IMG/VR virus record: IMGVR_UViG_3300020042_007960
Span: 1-34,190 of that record
Direction: 5' to 3' (one strand)
From: a virus
Lineage: Duplodnaviria > Caudoviricetes
Length of the DNA: 34,190 nucleotides
The notes beneath the pieces were generated by a model. It was not told the DNA's origin, did not search any database, and saw only the letters and a program-made list of their open reading frames with translations. The translations under genes were made by a program, and so were the position numbers. The stretch's first letter is position 1, and every line of letters starts with the position of its first letter. Below, one piece after another: positions 14,901-33,320 of this stretch.

Positions 14901-14984
14901 GCCGAGGTGGTGAAATGGCATACACGTTAGCCTTAGGAGCTAATGACGCAAGTTGTGAGGGTTCGACTCCCTTCCTCGGCACCA
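14901..14984 (+). tRNA. tRNA-Leu(TAG)
   Basis: GCCGAGG/CCTCGGC acceptor stem, TTAGC-CTTAGGA-GCTAA anticodon arm, long variable arm, TTCGA, encoded CCA. Confidence 0.93.
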
Positions 14985-15028
14985 CTGGTAGCAAAAGCTA
15001 CCAAATAACTCAGTATAGAAGAGGTTTT

Positions 15029-16363
15029 ATGCGTTTTAAAGGTTTGTTGCTTTGTGTAGTGCTTGCAGTTTTGTGTGCGTGTGGCGCTCCAGCCGTTGTG
15101 GTTACACCCACTAATGTTCCTGATAATCTACCCGCAGCTCCTACAGCAACTATTGAAGTAGAAATCCCAACAGAAATCCCGACAGAAATCCCGACGGTAG
15201 TCCCAACAAAGGTTCCAACGGAAATCCCAACAGAAATCGCCACAAACATTCCTATTGCGACTCCTACTACAGTAGTTACGAACACCGTAGTTCCAACTGC
15301 GGTAATTATCCCAACGGCCACAACTGCTCCAGTAGCAGCGGTTACCGAATGGGAGCCACGACAATTGACTGCGAAGTTGGTTGGCTCTGGTGCAAGTTTC
15401 CCTAACCCATTGTACCAAGTATGGATTGCAGTGTACACGAAGAACGTCGTTCCTGGTGTGCAGTTAAGTTACTCTAGTGTTGGTTCGGGTCAGGGTCAGA
15501 AAGACTTTATTGCTTACTTGACCGACTTTGGTGGGTCTGACTCAGCAATTAAATCGGGCGATGTTACTACCAAGGCTCCAGACGCAATTCACTTGCCAAT
15601 GGTCATGGGTGGTGTCATGCCGATGGCTAACATTCCTGGTATTAAAACAGGTCTGAAGTTTACTCCAGAAACTCTCGCCGGTATTTATCTAGGTGCAATT
15701 ACTAACTGGAATGACCCACGTATCGCTCAAGATAACGCAGGTGTTGCTCTCCCAGACTTGGCGATTACTCCGGTTTATCGCTCTGACAGTTCAGGTACGA
15801 CGTCAATTTGGACTGACTACCTAAGCAAGGTCAGTGCGGATTGGAGGGCCAAGGTTGGTTCTGGTAGTGCTGTGAGTTTCCCAGCGGGTATTGGTGCCTC
15901 TGGTAACGCCGGTGTTTCAGCAACAGTCCTTAATACCAACGGTGGTGTTGGTTATGTTGAAGTTGGTTACGCCTTAGCGGCCGGCTTCCCACTACCATTC
16001 GTCAAGAACGCCGCTGGTAACTTTGTCAAGCCCGAAACTGCAAGCGTCAGCGCCGCTGCTACGGGTTTGAATATCTCGTCCAACCCACAAAAGTTGGCTA
16101 CGTCTATCACAAACAGTGCTTCTGCCGACGCCTATCCAATTGCAGCATTTACGTATGTTCTTGTTCGTCAATCGACCTACACGGATGTAGTTAAAGCGCA
16201 GGCCCTGTCAGACTTCCTTTACTGGGGTTTGACCACGGGTCAGGGAGCAACAGTCCGTTTGGGCTATGCACCACTTCCCGAGGCAATGCGCCAAGCTTCA
16301 ATGAAAGCACTTAAGACTGTTGCAGTCAATGGTCAATCAGTACTGGACGCCCCAGTTAAGTAA
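15029..16363 (+). CDS. pstS: Phosphate ABC transporter substrate-binding lipoprotein PstS with Pro/Thr-rich linker
   Basis: Lipobox-like LCAC; (PTEI)n linker; 'GSGASFPNPLY', 'VGSGQG', 'DFGGSD', 'RSDSSGTT', 'GYVE', 'YPI'; true start ATG 15029 behind GAGG. Confidence 0.95.
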   Translation: MRFKGLLLCVVLAVLCACGAPAVVVTPTNVPDNLPAAPTATIEVEIPTEIPTEIPTVVPTKVPTEIPTEIATNIPIATPTTVVTNTVVPTAVIIPTATTAPVAAVTEWEPRQLTAKLVGSGASFPNPLYQVWIAVYTKNVVPGVQLSYSSVGSGQGQKDFIAYLTDFGGSDSAIKSGDVTTKAPDAIHLPMVMGGVMPMANIPGIKTGLKFTPETLAGIYLGAITNWNDPRIAQDNAGVALPDLAITPVYRSDSSGTTSIWTDYLSKVSADWRAKVGSGSAVSFPAGIGASGNAGVSATVLNTNGGVGYVEVGYALAAGFPLPFVKNAAGNFVKPETASVSAAATGLNISSNPQKLATSITNSASADAYPIAAFTYVLVRQSTYTDVVKAQALSDFLYWGLTTGQGATVRLGYAPLPEAMRQASMKALKTVAVNGQSVLDAPVK

Positions 16364-16407
16364 GTTAACTTGGTTATAAAACTCGCCGGCCTAACCAACC
16401 GGCATAA

Positions 16408-16483
16408 GGGCCAATAGCTCAGAGGTTAGAGCAAATTCCTCATAAGAATGGTGTCGATAGTTCAATCCTATCTTGGCCCACCA
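16408..16483 (+). tRNA. tRNA with CAT anticodon (elongator Met or Ile2)
   Basis: GGGCCAA/TTGGCCC stem, CTCATAA loop, GATAG-TTCAATC-CTATC T arm, CCA; G1-C72 is paired, so not an initiator. Confidence 0.88.
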
Positions 16484-16484
16484 A

Positions 16485-16570
16485 GCCAGAGTGGCGGAAC
16501 GGCAGACGCTACGGTCTTAAAAACCGTTGAAAGTGATTTCGTGCGGGTTCGACTCCCGCCTTTGGCACCA
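16485..16570 (+). tRNA. tRNA-Leu(TAA)
   Basis: GCCAGAG/CTTTGGC, ACGGT-CTTAAAA-ACCGT, long variable arm, CCA. Confidence 0.93.
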
Positions 16571-16571
16571 A

Positions 16572-16646
16572 GGGTCAATAGCTCAAAGGCAGAGCATGTG
16601 CCTTTTAAGCGCTTGGTTGTAGGTTCGACTCCTGCTTGACCCACCA
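16572..16646 (+). tRNA. tRNA-Lys(TTT)
   Basis: GGGTCAA/TTGACCC, CTTTTAA loop, TTCGA, CCA. Confidence 0.9.
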
Positions 16647-16660
16647 TTAAAGGAGTGAGT

Positions 16661-16843
16661 ATGACTAAAGTACTTAATTGTTTGTGTGGTCAGTGTCGAT
16701 TGTCTAAGAAACGGTCTACTACGTATAAACAGCATAACAGAAATGTACGTAGAAAAATTCGCCGGCTTGTATTTTATAATGTTTTGCATTATAATTATGA
16801 GATAGATATTCCAGAAAAACATAGCGGGGTTTACCTCGCTTAA
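16661..16843 (+). CDS. Small basic hypothetical protein (CxCxxC)
   Basis: AAGGAG RBS; fills the gap between tRNAs exactly. Confidence 0.6.
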   Translation: MTKVLNCLCGQCRLSKKRSTTYKQHNRNVRRKIRRLVFYNVLHYNYEIDIPEKHSGVYLA

Positions 16844-16844
16844 T

Positions 16845-16919
16845 GCCAACGTGGCGCAATGGTAGCGCAACTGTTTTGTAAACAGTCGGTCGTCGGTTCA
16901 AATCCGACCGTTGGCTCCA
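16845..16919 (+). tRNA. tRNA-Thr(TGT)
   Basis: GCCAACG/CGTTGGC, ACTGT-TTTGTAA-ACAGT, CCA. Confidence 0.93.
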
Positions 16920-16928
16920 GTAATTCAC

Positions 16929-16957
16929 TTGACAAGTAGTCAACAATGTAGTATTCT
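16929..16957 (+). promoter_or_regulatory. Sigma70-type promoter for the Mom-like gene
   Basis: TTGACA, 17 bp, TATTCT. Confidence 0.6.
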
Positions 16958-16978
16958 TAATATAGAAAGGATGAACAA

Positions 16979-17605
16979 ATGCAGAATCTATACCACGTAA
17001 AAAGAATTTCTGGGAAAGATACTAAAGAGTTTATTATAAAGAATCACTACACACATGGATGCCATAATGGTCCTATGGGATTTGGTTTATTTGAGGGGGA
17101 CTTTTTAATAGGAGTTTGTGCTTTTGCAACCCCTTGTTCAGAAAATGTACGTTCTAGTATTTTTGGAAAAGAATTTAAAGATTCCGTAACTGAGTTACAC
17201 CGACTTTTTATCGTTGACGGAACTCCAAAAAATACTGAAAGTTGGTTTGTAAGCCGGGCATTAAACATGCTTAAGGAAGAGAAGCCACATATTCAAGCAG
17301 TAGTATCTTTTGCTGACGGTACTCAAGGACATGTAGGCACAATCTACCAAGCACTTAATGCTATTTATTATGGAACTTCAGGAAAAGCCACATTCTACCG
17401 AGACGGGGACGGTCGATTACGGCATCCAAGACAGAACGGTACTAATATTACAAAAGAAACTGCACAAGTATTAAACTGGATTCCAGAAAAAAGAGAGGCT
17501 AAACACCGATATTTATTTCTACTGGGAACTCCATTTCAAAAAAAGAAACTACGTAAAAAGACTCTAGTAGTAGCAAAACCGTATCCAAAAAAGTTAACAG
17601 TTTAG
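16979..17605 (+). CDS. Mom-family (GNAT-fold) DNA adenine modification protein
   Basis: 'IIKNHY', 'GVCAF', 'ELHRL', 'PKNTESWFVSRAL', 'SFAD..QGHVGTIYQA.N', 'KHRY'. Confidence 0.8.
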   Translation: MQNLYHVKRISGKDTKEFIIKNHYTHGCHNGPMGFGLFEGDFLIGVCAFATPCSENVRSSIFGKEFKDSVTELHRLFIVDGTPKNTESWFVSRALNMLKEEKPHIQAVVSFADGTQGHVGTIYQALNAIYYGTSGKATFYRDGDGRLRHPRQNGTNITKETAQVLNWIPEKREAKHRYLFLLGTPFQKKKLRKKTLVVAKPYPKKLTV

Positions 17606-17618
17606 GCTGTTAATATTT

Positions 17619-17655
17619 GCCAGCATAGCTCAGCGGATAGAGCAATTGCCTTTAA
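17619..17655 (+). pseudogene. tRNA 5'-half remnant (Arg-like)
   Basis: GCCAGCA-TA-GCTC-AGCGGATA-GAGC-A-ATTGC-CTT; breaks off in the anticodon loop; no matching 3' half seen. Confidence 0.7.
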
Positions 17656-17665
17656 AGGAGAGTGT

Positions 17666-17893
17666 ATGGAACAGAATTCAATAACGGACCCACTCAGCCC
17701 ACTAGATAAGCCTTGTTCTTTTTGTGGTACTGAGTATGAGGATGATAACTGGGGTGTGCTAGGTTGGATAGGGATTCTACCCATCTCACTTTGTATTGAT
17801 TGTCAAACTGGGGTGTTTAACATGGTCTATCAACTCACTCCGCTAGAAGACCTAGAAGATATGATAAAGGAACTTAAAGACGAGCCGACGTAG
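17666..17893 (+). CDS. Small hypothetical protein with two CxxC motifs (Zn-binding)
   Basis: AAGGAG RBS; CSFC...CIDC. Confidence 0.7.
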   Translation: MEQNSITDPLSPLDKPCSFCGTEYEDDNWGVLGWIGILPISLCIDCQTGVFNMVYQLTPLEDLEDMIKELKDEPT

Positions 17894-17959
17894 CTTAATG
17901 GACAAAGTAGCTGTCTTCTAAACAGTTGAGTGTAGGTTCGAGTCCTACCGTTGGTACCA
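17884..17959 (+). tRNA. tRNA-Arg(TCT)
   Basis: GCCGACG/CGTTGGT, GCTGT-CTTCTAA-ACAGT, GTAGG-TTCGAGT-CCTAC, ACCA. Confidence 0.85.
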
Positions 17960-32240: not shown

Positions 32241-32265
32241 GGGGGTAGGGGGACCCCCTACCCCC
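32241..32265. repeat. G/C palindrome copy 11
   Basis: GGGGGTAGGGGG-A-CCCCCTACCCCC. Confidence 0.95.
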
Positions 32266-32276
32266 TACGGGGCTAT

Positions 32277-32408
32277 TGGTGGAGATGGAGAGAATCGAAC
32301 TCTCGTCCAGAACTATTGTCACCATCTAAGGTAACGGTTTTTCGTGTCTCTGTAAAGGCAGTTATCACTACTTGACCATACATAGCACTGTCAATACCTG
32401 GCATCCCC
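32277..32408 (-). ncRNA. Miniature tmRNA-like RNA (132 nt; tRNA-like domain intact, central region much reduced)
   Basis: 5' GGGGATG-CCAGGTATTGAC; 3' GGAC-GAGAG-TTCGATT-CTCTC-CATCTCC-ACCA; G3.U70 pair and A73. Confidence 0.8.
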
Positions 32409-32417
32409 GTATATTAG

Positions 32418-32486
32418 TGTCACTGGTAGGAATCGAACCTACGTCCTGATTCTTACGAATCTTCCCGACCACTGGGCGACAGTGAC
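32418..32486 (-). ncRNA. tRNA-like RNA with a GNRA tetraloop in place of the anticodon loop
   Basis: GTCACTG/CAGTGAC stem, CCC-AGTGGTC-GGG D arm, GATTC-GTAA-GAATC, GTAGG-TTCGATT-CCTAC. Confidence 0.75.
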
Positions 32487-32489
32487 AAA

Positions 32490-32571
32490 TGGTCACTCTG
32501 TGAAGAATCGAACTCCACACCACAAAGAAGTAATTCCGGAATTCCTTCTAAGTCCGGCACCAGCCAAAGCG
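32490..32571 (-). ncRNA. Third tRNA-like RNA (acceptor stem + T arm + CCA, atypical middle)
   Basis: CGCTTTG/CAGAGTG-A-CCA, TGGAG-TTCGATT-CTTCA, AGAAG..CTTCT long hairpin. Confidence 0.6.
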
Positions 32572-32575
32572 ATAA

Positions 32576-32665
32576 CTAGACTTCATCAAACAGGGCTTGA
32601 GCAACGGCGCTGAATAAAGCCGCCCGAACTAACAACACCGCAACAACAATCAGAATCAGAATCAC
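32576..32665 (-). CDS. Hydrophobic micro-protein (29 aa, MILILIVVAVLLVRAALFSAVAQALFDEV)
   Basis: AGGAG RBS, GTG start, first in the P12 transcript. Confidence 0.55.
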   Translation of the reverse strand: MILILIVVAVLLVRAALFSAVAQALFDEV

Positions 32666-32693
32666 AATCACTCCTATCACTAACTTATATCTA

Positions 32694-32739
32694 AGTATAC
32701 CATGACTTTGTCTAAAGTAAAATGAGAGAATGATTAATC
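32694..32739 (-). promoter_or_regulatory. Cassette promoter P12 (drives the tRNA-like cluster)
   Basis: GATTAAT-N4-CTCTCAT, 22 bp, TATACT preceded by TGG. Confidence 0.75.
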
Positions 32740-33248: not shown

Positions 33249-33320
33249 ATTTGAATTTTATATTTTGAATTTTGAATTTTGAATTTTGAATTTTGAATTT
33301 TGAATTTTGGATTTTTGAGA
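33249..33320. repeat. Tandem heptamer repeat (TTTTGAA)n
   Basis: About six perfect TTTTGAA units plus degenerate flanks. Confidence 0.9.

Follow-up and report, generated by a model that had tools for sequence, protein, structure and literature searches.

A phage cassette encodes a 132-nt tmRNA-like RNA that keeps a host-type resume signal and lacks a conserved tag frame

The window analysed here, the whole stretch of 34,190 nucleotides, is a phage record of 34 kb with genes for DNA polymerase, primase, thymidylate synthase and PstS. The sequencing runs in which it is best represented are freshwater metagenomes, and no RNA dataset is among the runs listed. Because the phage PstS is 72% identical to that of genome G010 and 62-66% identical to those of G008 and G011, the host is probably a freshwater member of the Roseiflexaceae (Chloroflexota); PstS had no match in two other genomes tried. 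Six ordinary tRNAs, all with an encoded CCA (6/6), lie at 14901-17959 on the plus strand, in agreement with an initial annotation that had placed the ordinary tRNA cluster apart from the locus studied here and on the other strand. The PstS open frame as listed (14915-16363) begins within tRNA-Leu (14901-14984), and the true PstS start is probably further downstream than listed. The cassette with which this report is concerned comprises the following features:

32694..32721, minus strand: promoter-like site TTTACT-16-TATACT with TG before the -10 (a consensus match only)
32576..32665, minus strand: hydrophobic ORF of 29 codons with a GTG start and AGGAG at 32675-32671, an optional partner of the RNAs
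32490..32571, minus strand: RNA1, a tRNA-like RNA of 82 nt (optional)
32415..32486, minus strand: RNA2, a tRNA cloverleaf of 72 nt with a GUAA tetraloop (optional; RF00005 match)
32277..32408, minus strand: RNA3, a mini-tmRNA of 132 nt (RF00023 match; alignment of 30 homologues)
32341..32372, minus strand: AGUA/GAA internal loop and 3-bp stem closing the resume loop of RNA3
32347..32365, minus strand: resume loop of RNA3, 19 nt, ATAACT followed by the resume codon GCC (32359-32357)
32241..32265, no strand: G/C palindrome bounding the cassette, without a U tract, one of 11 in the early region

The promoter-like site, the ORF and the three tandem RNAs are present on the minus strand at the places where they had been annotated. 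A scan for promoter-like sites returned two, against 1.4 in shuffles, which is weak; an equal promoter unit heads five early cassettes. The ORF reaches a best 19-residue hydropathy of 2.85, is predicted to form a single membrane helix and has no Pfam match; its codon changes in three relatives (L118, L123 and L135) are eight synonymous to two or three non-synonymous. From the ORF through RNA1 and RNA2 to RNA3, the gaps are 4, 3 and 6 nt, the last being 9 nt if RNA2 ended at its discriminator. Each of the three RNAs joins a 7-bp acceptor stem to a 5-bp T arm bearing TTCGATT. When the window was scanned for a T arm with a 7-bp acceptor stem, nine elements were found, namely the six ordinary tRNAs and RNA1-3, and none in 150 shuffled windows, which bears out the common architecture proposed earlier. 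The identical T loop, also remarked upon earlier, is present in RNA1-3 but incidental: six different T loops occur among the 30 homologues of RNA3, and those of RNA1 and RNA2 also vary among versions. Default ARAGORN, run on the window, called none of the three RNAs.

Between 24235 and 33845 of the window, 11 G/C palindromes set apart short minus-strand promoter units. A terminator role for the palindrome of this cassette was rejected, as the U tract is absent; because there is no U tract at the one scanned, the palindromes are more likely DNA-level boundaries than terminators. Tandem 7-base repeats of the TTTTGAA type are found at about 33250-33320, upstream of a palindrome, and also in the relatives L116, L118, L123 and L126, with varying copy number.

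By Rfam, RNA3 is a tmRNA (RF00023, 66.3 bits against a cut-off of 47). Its acceptor stem leads into helix 2a (10 bp) and a three-way junction, from which a 4-bp hairpin branches off; helix 2b comes next, followed by the AGUA/GAA internal loop, a 3-bp stem, the 19-nt loop and the T arm. These nested helices take up all of the 81-nt interior, and a pseudoknot ring was not found there. A permuted (two-piece) tmRNA was rejected for RNA3, with RF04321 scoring 23.2 bits against a cut-off of 47; the permuted tmRNA called by relaxed ARAGORN was likewise rejected, as it borrows RNA2 and RNA1, which are absent from relatives.

A pattern search for short tmRNAs yielded 95 loci in metagenomes, 18 in genomes and 17 in viral sequences. 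The RNA3 family consists of 40 loci with 31 distinct sequences of 131-134 nt; with one sequence cut by a contig end excluded, 30 distinct homologues of 132-134 nt were aligned (mean identity 76%, lowest 62%). In this alignment 97.4% of cells are paired, both sides have changed in 20 of the 35 pairs, and every helix has at least one pair changed on both sides; pair 37-73 is weak (15/30). None of 500 shuffles scored as high, and slid controls were 38-46% paired; the shuffle control ignores relatedness, and the slid control retains it. Because 20 of the 35 pairs show compensatory changes across the 30 homologues, RNA3 is not decaying: it is a selected RNA, neither decay nor misassembly. The earlier view that these RNAs are non-decoding and have not arisen by random decay is thereby sustained, and the relatives hold the short form, not an intact tmRNA. 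The alanine-type end is kept throughout (G3-U and CCA in 30/30, with A as discriminator), as are the D-loop GAC and the 3' GGAC, invariant in 30/30, which by sequence form a putative SmpB-binding elbow. In the internal loop, AGTA is found in 30/30 and GAA in 29/30, and we take this loop, by its motif, to be of the loop-E or sarcin-ricin type; the 3-bp stem that closes the resume loop is paired in 90 of 90 cells.

The loop of RNA3 carries AUAACU-GCC, which matches letter for letter the full tmRNA of G008, G010 and G011 (Roseiflexaceae/Chloroflexota), 363-366 nt long and with the tag AKNISAPSFARTTAFAA. Among the 30 homologues, -6 A, -4 A, -1 U and the GC of the resume codon are invariant; position -3 is A in 29/30, and -5 is U, C or G, never A. 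The codon itself is GCC in 26 and GCA in 4, and positions +7 to +12 vary. Mutations of E. coli tmRNA show that A86 (-4) is essential and that U85 can be changed to C or G, whereas A at this position does harm (PMC2481249); the conservation seen in the alignment fits this mutational pattern. The bases preceding the resume codon contact SmpB, placing that codon (PMC8012679). A hairpin that would hide the resume codon (GUAGU-GAUA-ACUGC) was rejected: it shows no covariation, is 76% paired, and scores no higher than any of 500 shuffles (500/500 as high).

Beyond the resume codon, a stop is dispensable. Across the 31 sequences of the family, UGA follows five codons in 18, a stop comes earlier in 2, and none precedes the CCA in 11, the window's RNA3 included. 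Where stops are present (20/31) they never follow Ala-Ala, and a tag frame ending in a degron was not found. On the tree, the stop has undergone about 8 changes, at least 4 of them forced by well-supported branches, and it is no more clustered than shuffled labels (62/500). The second codon in the 30 homologues specifies Phe (16), His (7), Tyr (4) or Leu (3).

To look beyond the RNA3 family, we removed that family and six further loci (L001, L004, L200, L201, L204 and L213), each of which either matches the inside of a full tmRNA or is likely misassembled; the 77 distinct interiors that remained form 45 clusters. A loose resume pattern had no power in this set (31 of the 45 against 28.5 expected). 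A matrix made from the RNA3 family only, applied to the 43 unrelated clusters with interiors of at least 55 nt, gave a mean of 2.82 against -0.36 (sd 0.49), the highest of 200 shuffles being 1.1, and 9/43 clusters pass singly. Of its best sites, 65% fall in the central part of the arm, against 29% in shuffles, with a middle window that was chosen with the RNA3 family in mind. Some of these clusters, L149 for example, may be distant kin of the RNA3 family. The 43 unrelated mini-tmRNAs are 110-143 nt long, and stops are not conserved across them. On Anaerolineae-type contigs, mini-tmRNAs of 119-125 nt (L156, L186, L190, L196, L199 and L208) have a resume-like loop closed by a CGA/GAUGA internal loop, not AGUA/GAA, which by sequence we take to be kink-turn-like. 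The short "tmRNA" matches in genomes at L200, L204 and L201 look like misassemblies, one of them containing an N gap, or like a match to the inside of a full tmRNA; short tmRNAs of either kind are a trap in pattern searches.

Against 50,697 annotated phage records, blastn of the cassette returned only matches of T-arm size, in 98 records and none above 13% of the query. The polymerase recurs at 65-74% in seven phage records, four of which (three of four among those at least 90% complete) have a 133-nt tmRNA; the complete G006 is without it. The make-up of the cassette varies from relative to relative. The ORF, RNA1 and RNA3 occur together in L118, L123 and L135; a 28-codon ORF precedes RNA3 in L126, L129 and L140; in L116, RNA3 stands behind another ORF; and in G004, G007, L124, L132 and L146 the promoter is followed directly by RNA3. 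A contig of run X6 with all three RNAs has 11 differences over 423 bases, and of the eight listed, six fall in the ORF, one in the T loop of RNA2, one in RNA3 and none in RNA1; the whole trio is present in an independent contig at depth 30. A second X6 contig joins 32272 to 32734, so that the whole cassette (32273-32733) is absent; strains differ by whole promoter units. The initial annotation had described a three-part system. Its grouping of the RNAs in one promoter unit is upheld, and G003 has a parallel trio of its own (a mini-tmRNA, a 162-nt tRNA-ended RNA and a tRNA sealed by GUGA). A fixed system of three parts is contradicted, however, by close relatives that carry RNA3 alone, RNA1 with RNA3, all three, or none: the conserved member of the cassette is RNA3, and RNA1 and RNA2 are optional.

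Other tRNA-ended RNAs occur in the same surroundings. An RNA of 156-162 nt adjoins the mini-tmRNA at G003:21822-21986 (L093), L164, L172, L185 and L239. It has an acceptor stem, a T arm and the conserved core CCCGACGGG...GAAAT; both sides have changed in 24 of 43 predicted pairs (five sequences), and no Rfam family was over cut-off in the four loci scanned. At G004:30250-31450 (L094:13250-14450) and in G007 (L095:13600-14800), two early cassettes hold tandem tRNA-ended RNAs of about 100 nt that have CCGTRGGTGCGGTA and GATTCTAGA in common, with no Rfam family over cut-off. In L115 and L154, a 60-nt tRNA without the entire anticodon arm, ending in ACTA and with the T stem of RNA2, sits about 170 nt past a 126-nt mini-tmRNA.

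RNA1 has a C1-G72 acceptor pair, an A discriminator and an encoded CCA, and its anticodon arm is replaced by a putative hairpin closed by CCGG. It lies below Rfam cut-offs, has no RF00005 match at E<=10, and does not yield a cloverleaf with an anticodon loop. Homologues were found at 3 of the 95 metagenome loci, and the RNA1 pattern had no match in viral contigs. Its four sequences offer one compensatory pair, two one-sided changes that keep pairing and one broken pair. RNA2 matches RF00005 at 42.6 bits, and its predicted fold is a cloverleaf (z -2.35) in which the acceptor, D and T arms are all present; its anticodon loop is the 4-nt GUAA, three bases fewer than the 7-nt loop, and its 3' end is ACTA, without an encoded CCA. 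RNA2 is found in contigs of runs X1, X3 and X6, the sole stem change seen being C-G to U-G (X1), and no diverged homologue was found among viral contigs (0 pattern matches) or metagenome loci. The ORF, RNA1 and RNA2 together matched 11 virus records over 14-23 bases only. The Rfam assignments considered in the initial annotation thus hold for RNA3 (RF00023) and RNA2 (RF00005) and fail for RNA1, which has no family over cut-off, and for Y RNA; covariation, too, bears out RNA3 (20/35 pairs, 0/500 shuffles) but in RNA1 does not rise above shuffles (120/500 as high).

Synthetases for most A73 tRNAs require the anticodon. Because of this, and because their acceptor ends are without alanine or histidine marks, RNA1 and RNA2 are probably uncharged. 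They could be interchangeable add-ons, likely uncharged tRNA look-alikes that would tie up host proteins with an affinity for the elbow or the 3' end of tRNA. It is rather doubtful that they have no target as products and instead mark sites to be cut by RNase P and trimmed at the 3' end, or are carried along as near-neutral passengers. In keeping with such roles, clear conservation in both is limited to the acceptor and T arm, RNA2 is without the encoded CCA that all six ordinary tRNAs of the window have, and both are lost from close relatives. Yet RNA3 carries its own processing handle, so RNA1 and RNA2 are unneeded as cut signals for it, and in relatives RNA3 lies directly behind the ORF or the promoter. 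Nor does a passenger accord with RNA1, in which 5-10 of 82 sites have changed against 11-12 of 90 in the ORF, and whose middle hairpin is invariant.

Mini-tmRNAs of the RNA3 family (133-134 nt) also occur on contigs from G008, which has three copies, and from G010 and G011, all genomes with a normal tmRNA as well. Their neighbours are Cas6e-like, Cas1, Cas2, APE2256, ClpP-like and DUF499/DUF3780/DUF1156 genes. Full-length mini-tmRNAs are present in 3 of 61 Roseiflexaceae genomes, and a 55-base end, apparently cut by the contig, in 2 more. Since the mini-tmRNA occurs in both phages and host islands, it therefore moves on mobile DNA of both kinds. The tmRNA database may already list the host-genome copies. 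Host-type loci are L202, L203, L205, L198 and L210 (in G008, G010 and G011), with L100, L105, L107, L121, L147, L163, L182, L188 and L189 in addition. Host contigs join differing left and right flanks across the mini-tmRNA gene, with up to three copies per genome; L188 and L189 are two copies about 2 kb apart on one contig, like a cassette array or an integration site. SmpB was found in none of five virus records and in three of three host genomes. RqcH/NFACT is present in 5/5 host genomes, which are incomplete; ArfB was over cut-off in none of these five incomplete genomes, the matches being only of release-factor size, and a hand-off to ArfB was rejected on this ground.

RNA3 has the anatomy of a tmRNA, covaries, conserves its frame-setting bases, has lost a conserved stop and resides in a modular cassette. 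We propose, with a probability a little under one half (about 0.48), that it is a tag-less competitor of host tmRNA, one that binds SmpB, enters stalled ribosomes and proceeds as far as the resume step. RNA3 is probably used on the ribosome, because G3-U, CCA and the frame-setting bases are invariant. Its message is probably not read to a productive end, because the stop is dispensable; and it likely competes with host rescue, because the restart signal is kept and the destroy-me tag is absent. In the scheme we envisage, RNase P and 3' trimming would cut each acceptor/T-arm unit from a single early transcript, AlaRS would charge RNA3, and SmpB and EF-Tu would deliver it. The nascent chain would be transferred, SmpB would grip the five bases before GCC, and GCC would be placed in the A site. 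A message must normally pass two ribosomal latches (PMC8012679; PMC13692277), so threading of the small, closed RNA3 loop is probably hindered. If the loop can be neither threaded nor read to a useful end, a dead-end complex would form, to be resolved by drop-off or the host RqcH route, with SmpB diverted from host tmRNA. Stalled proteins would thereby escape the host tag. A TLD-only RNA like that of the mycobacteriophage DS6A is reported to inhibit tmRNA (Mao 2009 via PMC4131195, PMC11915505), and CoCoNuT SmpB-like domains are a possible target (PMC10542128). The initial annotation had looked instead to PrrC, AriB, toxSAS and GNAT toxins as targets; this part of it is not supported, the conserved member being a tmRNA, whose natural partners are SmpB and the stalled ribosome.

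Several facts sit uneasily with competition. An RNA that did nothing but soak up SmpB could do without alanine identity (PMC4131195), a dead-end complex would cost the phage ribosomes where ArfB is not over cut-off in five incomplete host genomes, and the 13-nt single strand past GCC corresponds roughly to the segment with which E. coli tmRNA reaches uS3 (A97-A103; PMC13692277). Further, presence in host islands is odd for a purely anti-host weapon, the complete relative G006 lacks RNA3, and the in-frame UGA in 18/31 fits real rescue with a short tag. The main rival, which we hold to be unlikely, builds on this last point: RNA3 would be a working minimal rescue RNA, in which the 3-bp stem and loop E melt, the loop is read by the ribosome and the protein is let go with a short non-degron tail (A-A-F/Y/H/L-x-x-T), so that the phage gains rescue capacity and keeps its own proteins. 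Such an RNA would account for the invariance of alanine identity, CCA and frame-setting bases, for the synonymous change between GCC and GCA, and for a second codon that is always Phe, His, Tyr or Leu. ARAGORN, for its part, calls L185 a tmRNA with the tag AFNAT; the pseudoknots of E. coli tmRNA are replaceable (PMC2481249), and tags of two residues exist (PMC11915505). However, 11 sequences of the family, the window's RNA3 among them, run to the CCA end without a stop. The UGA, where present, coincides in part with the conserved GAA strand and may have arisen as a by-product, and unrelated mini-tmRNAs do not conserve stops. Passing two ribosomal latches would, moreover, be hard for a closed loop of 19 nt, as we infer from PMC8012679.

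That RNA1-3 form one decoy system against anticodon nucleases or toxins modifying the CCA or aminoacyl end is improbable. Three non-decoding designs under one promoter unit, the parallel trio of G003, other tRNA-ended non-coding RNAs beside the mini-tmRNA (L164, L172, L185, L239, L115 and L154) and a sealed GNRA loop in two unrelated sequences would all suit a decoy; the trio, however, is not kept, the conserved features of RNA3 point to SmpB and the ribosome, and no defence partner was identified. Anticodon nucleases read the anticodon, and the sealed loop removes it, leaving a decoy without what those enzymes recognize. Less probable still is that the mini-tmRNA gene acts mainly as DNA, serving phages and host islands alike as a place for recombination or integration. 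Host contigs do join differing flanks across it, in up to three copies per genome, and tmRNA genes are common integration sites (PMC11915505), but the inner arm shows compensatory change over its full length, a signal at the level of RNA, and in phages the mini-tmRNA lies directly behind promoters. The recent decay of ordinary tRNA or tmRNA genes, or a deletion in assembly, deserves next to no credence and is refuted for RNA3. RNA2 is indeed 3 nt short of a tRNA, with CTA for CCA, and misassembled short tmRNAs are among the genome matches (L200, L204); against this, the RNA3 family has 40 loci and 31 distinct sequences of 131-134 nt with a covarying inner structure of their own, and the trio recurs in the independent contig.

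A broader and more tentative suggestion can also be made. Mini-tmRNAs of 110-143 nt may represent a third widespread, "resume-only" form of tmRNA in phages and host islands, which would be charged, enter stalled ribosomes, set the host frame on a small loop and add at most a few non-degron residues. If so, resume-only tmRNAs would keep stalled proteins out of the tag-and-destroy route; within the present group of Chloroflexota phages they would be one item in a swappable kit of tRNA-ended RNAs against the host translation machinery. RNA3 is a natural minimal tmRNA, with pseudoknots and tag removed and frame-setting bases kept. It makes testable what the ribosome needs for template switching and why phages carry tmRNA, whether for more rescue or for escape from the tag. 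The form is probably under-annotated, because default ARAGORN misses RNA3 and a candidate from which much of the interior is deleted is discarded in curated searches for tmRNA (PMC11915505).

Among known RNAs, plant-mitochondrial t-elements and the stable tRNA-like RNAs of T4, likened here by description, are tRNA-shaped, non-decoding and processed from phage or organelle transcripts. RNA1 and RNA2 share the acceptor stem and T arm of canonical tRNA (RF00005), and RNA2 also its D arm and 5-bp anticodon stem; in contrast to canonical tRNA, both are without a 7-nt anticodon loop, and RNA2 is without an encoded CCA. Y RNA of the YrlA type is a poorer comparison, as no such family was among 11 matches at E<=10, and RNA1-3 all close with an acceptor stem. 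RNA3 shares with standard one-piece tmRNA (RF00023) its 5' and 3' ends, G3-U, the D-loop GGTWTYGAC, helix 2 and ATAACT-GCC. It is about 230 nt shorter than the Roseiflexaceae tmRNA and has no pseudoknots, conserved stop or Ala-Ala-ended tag. Like RNA3, the CDS-less tmRNAs of mitochondria and plastids and the Fermentibacterota tmRNAs with a 2-residue tag are selected RNAs with no tag frame or a minimal one (PMC11915505); these organellar and Fermentibacterota RNAs are, as that source has it, the cell's only tmRNA, whereas RNA3 is extra to a normal host tmRNA. The literature searched, which most subscription journals lay outside, held no description of a phage mini-tmRNA retaining the resume signal or of phage tRNA mimics with a sealed anticodon. 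The nearest relative in kind is the DS6A tmRNA (tmID 11587), known here by description: it is phage-borne, with an intact TLD and, in the available accounts, no pseudoknots and no degradation tag, as in RNA3, and has been proposed to inhibit host tmRNA via SmpB titration (PMC4131195, PMC11915505). It is described as "little more than the TLD", whereas RNA3 adds a covarying three-way junction; and, unlike the DS6A RNA as described, RNA3 has a loop with the host resume signal and first codon and is also found in host islands. A tag-less phage tmRNA has already been published in DS6A, and the form that retains the resume signal is apparently new.
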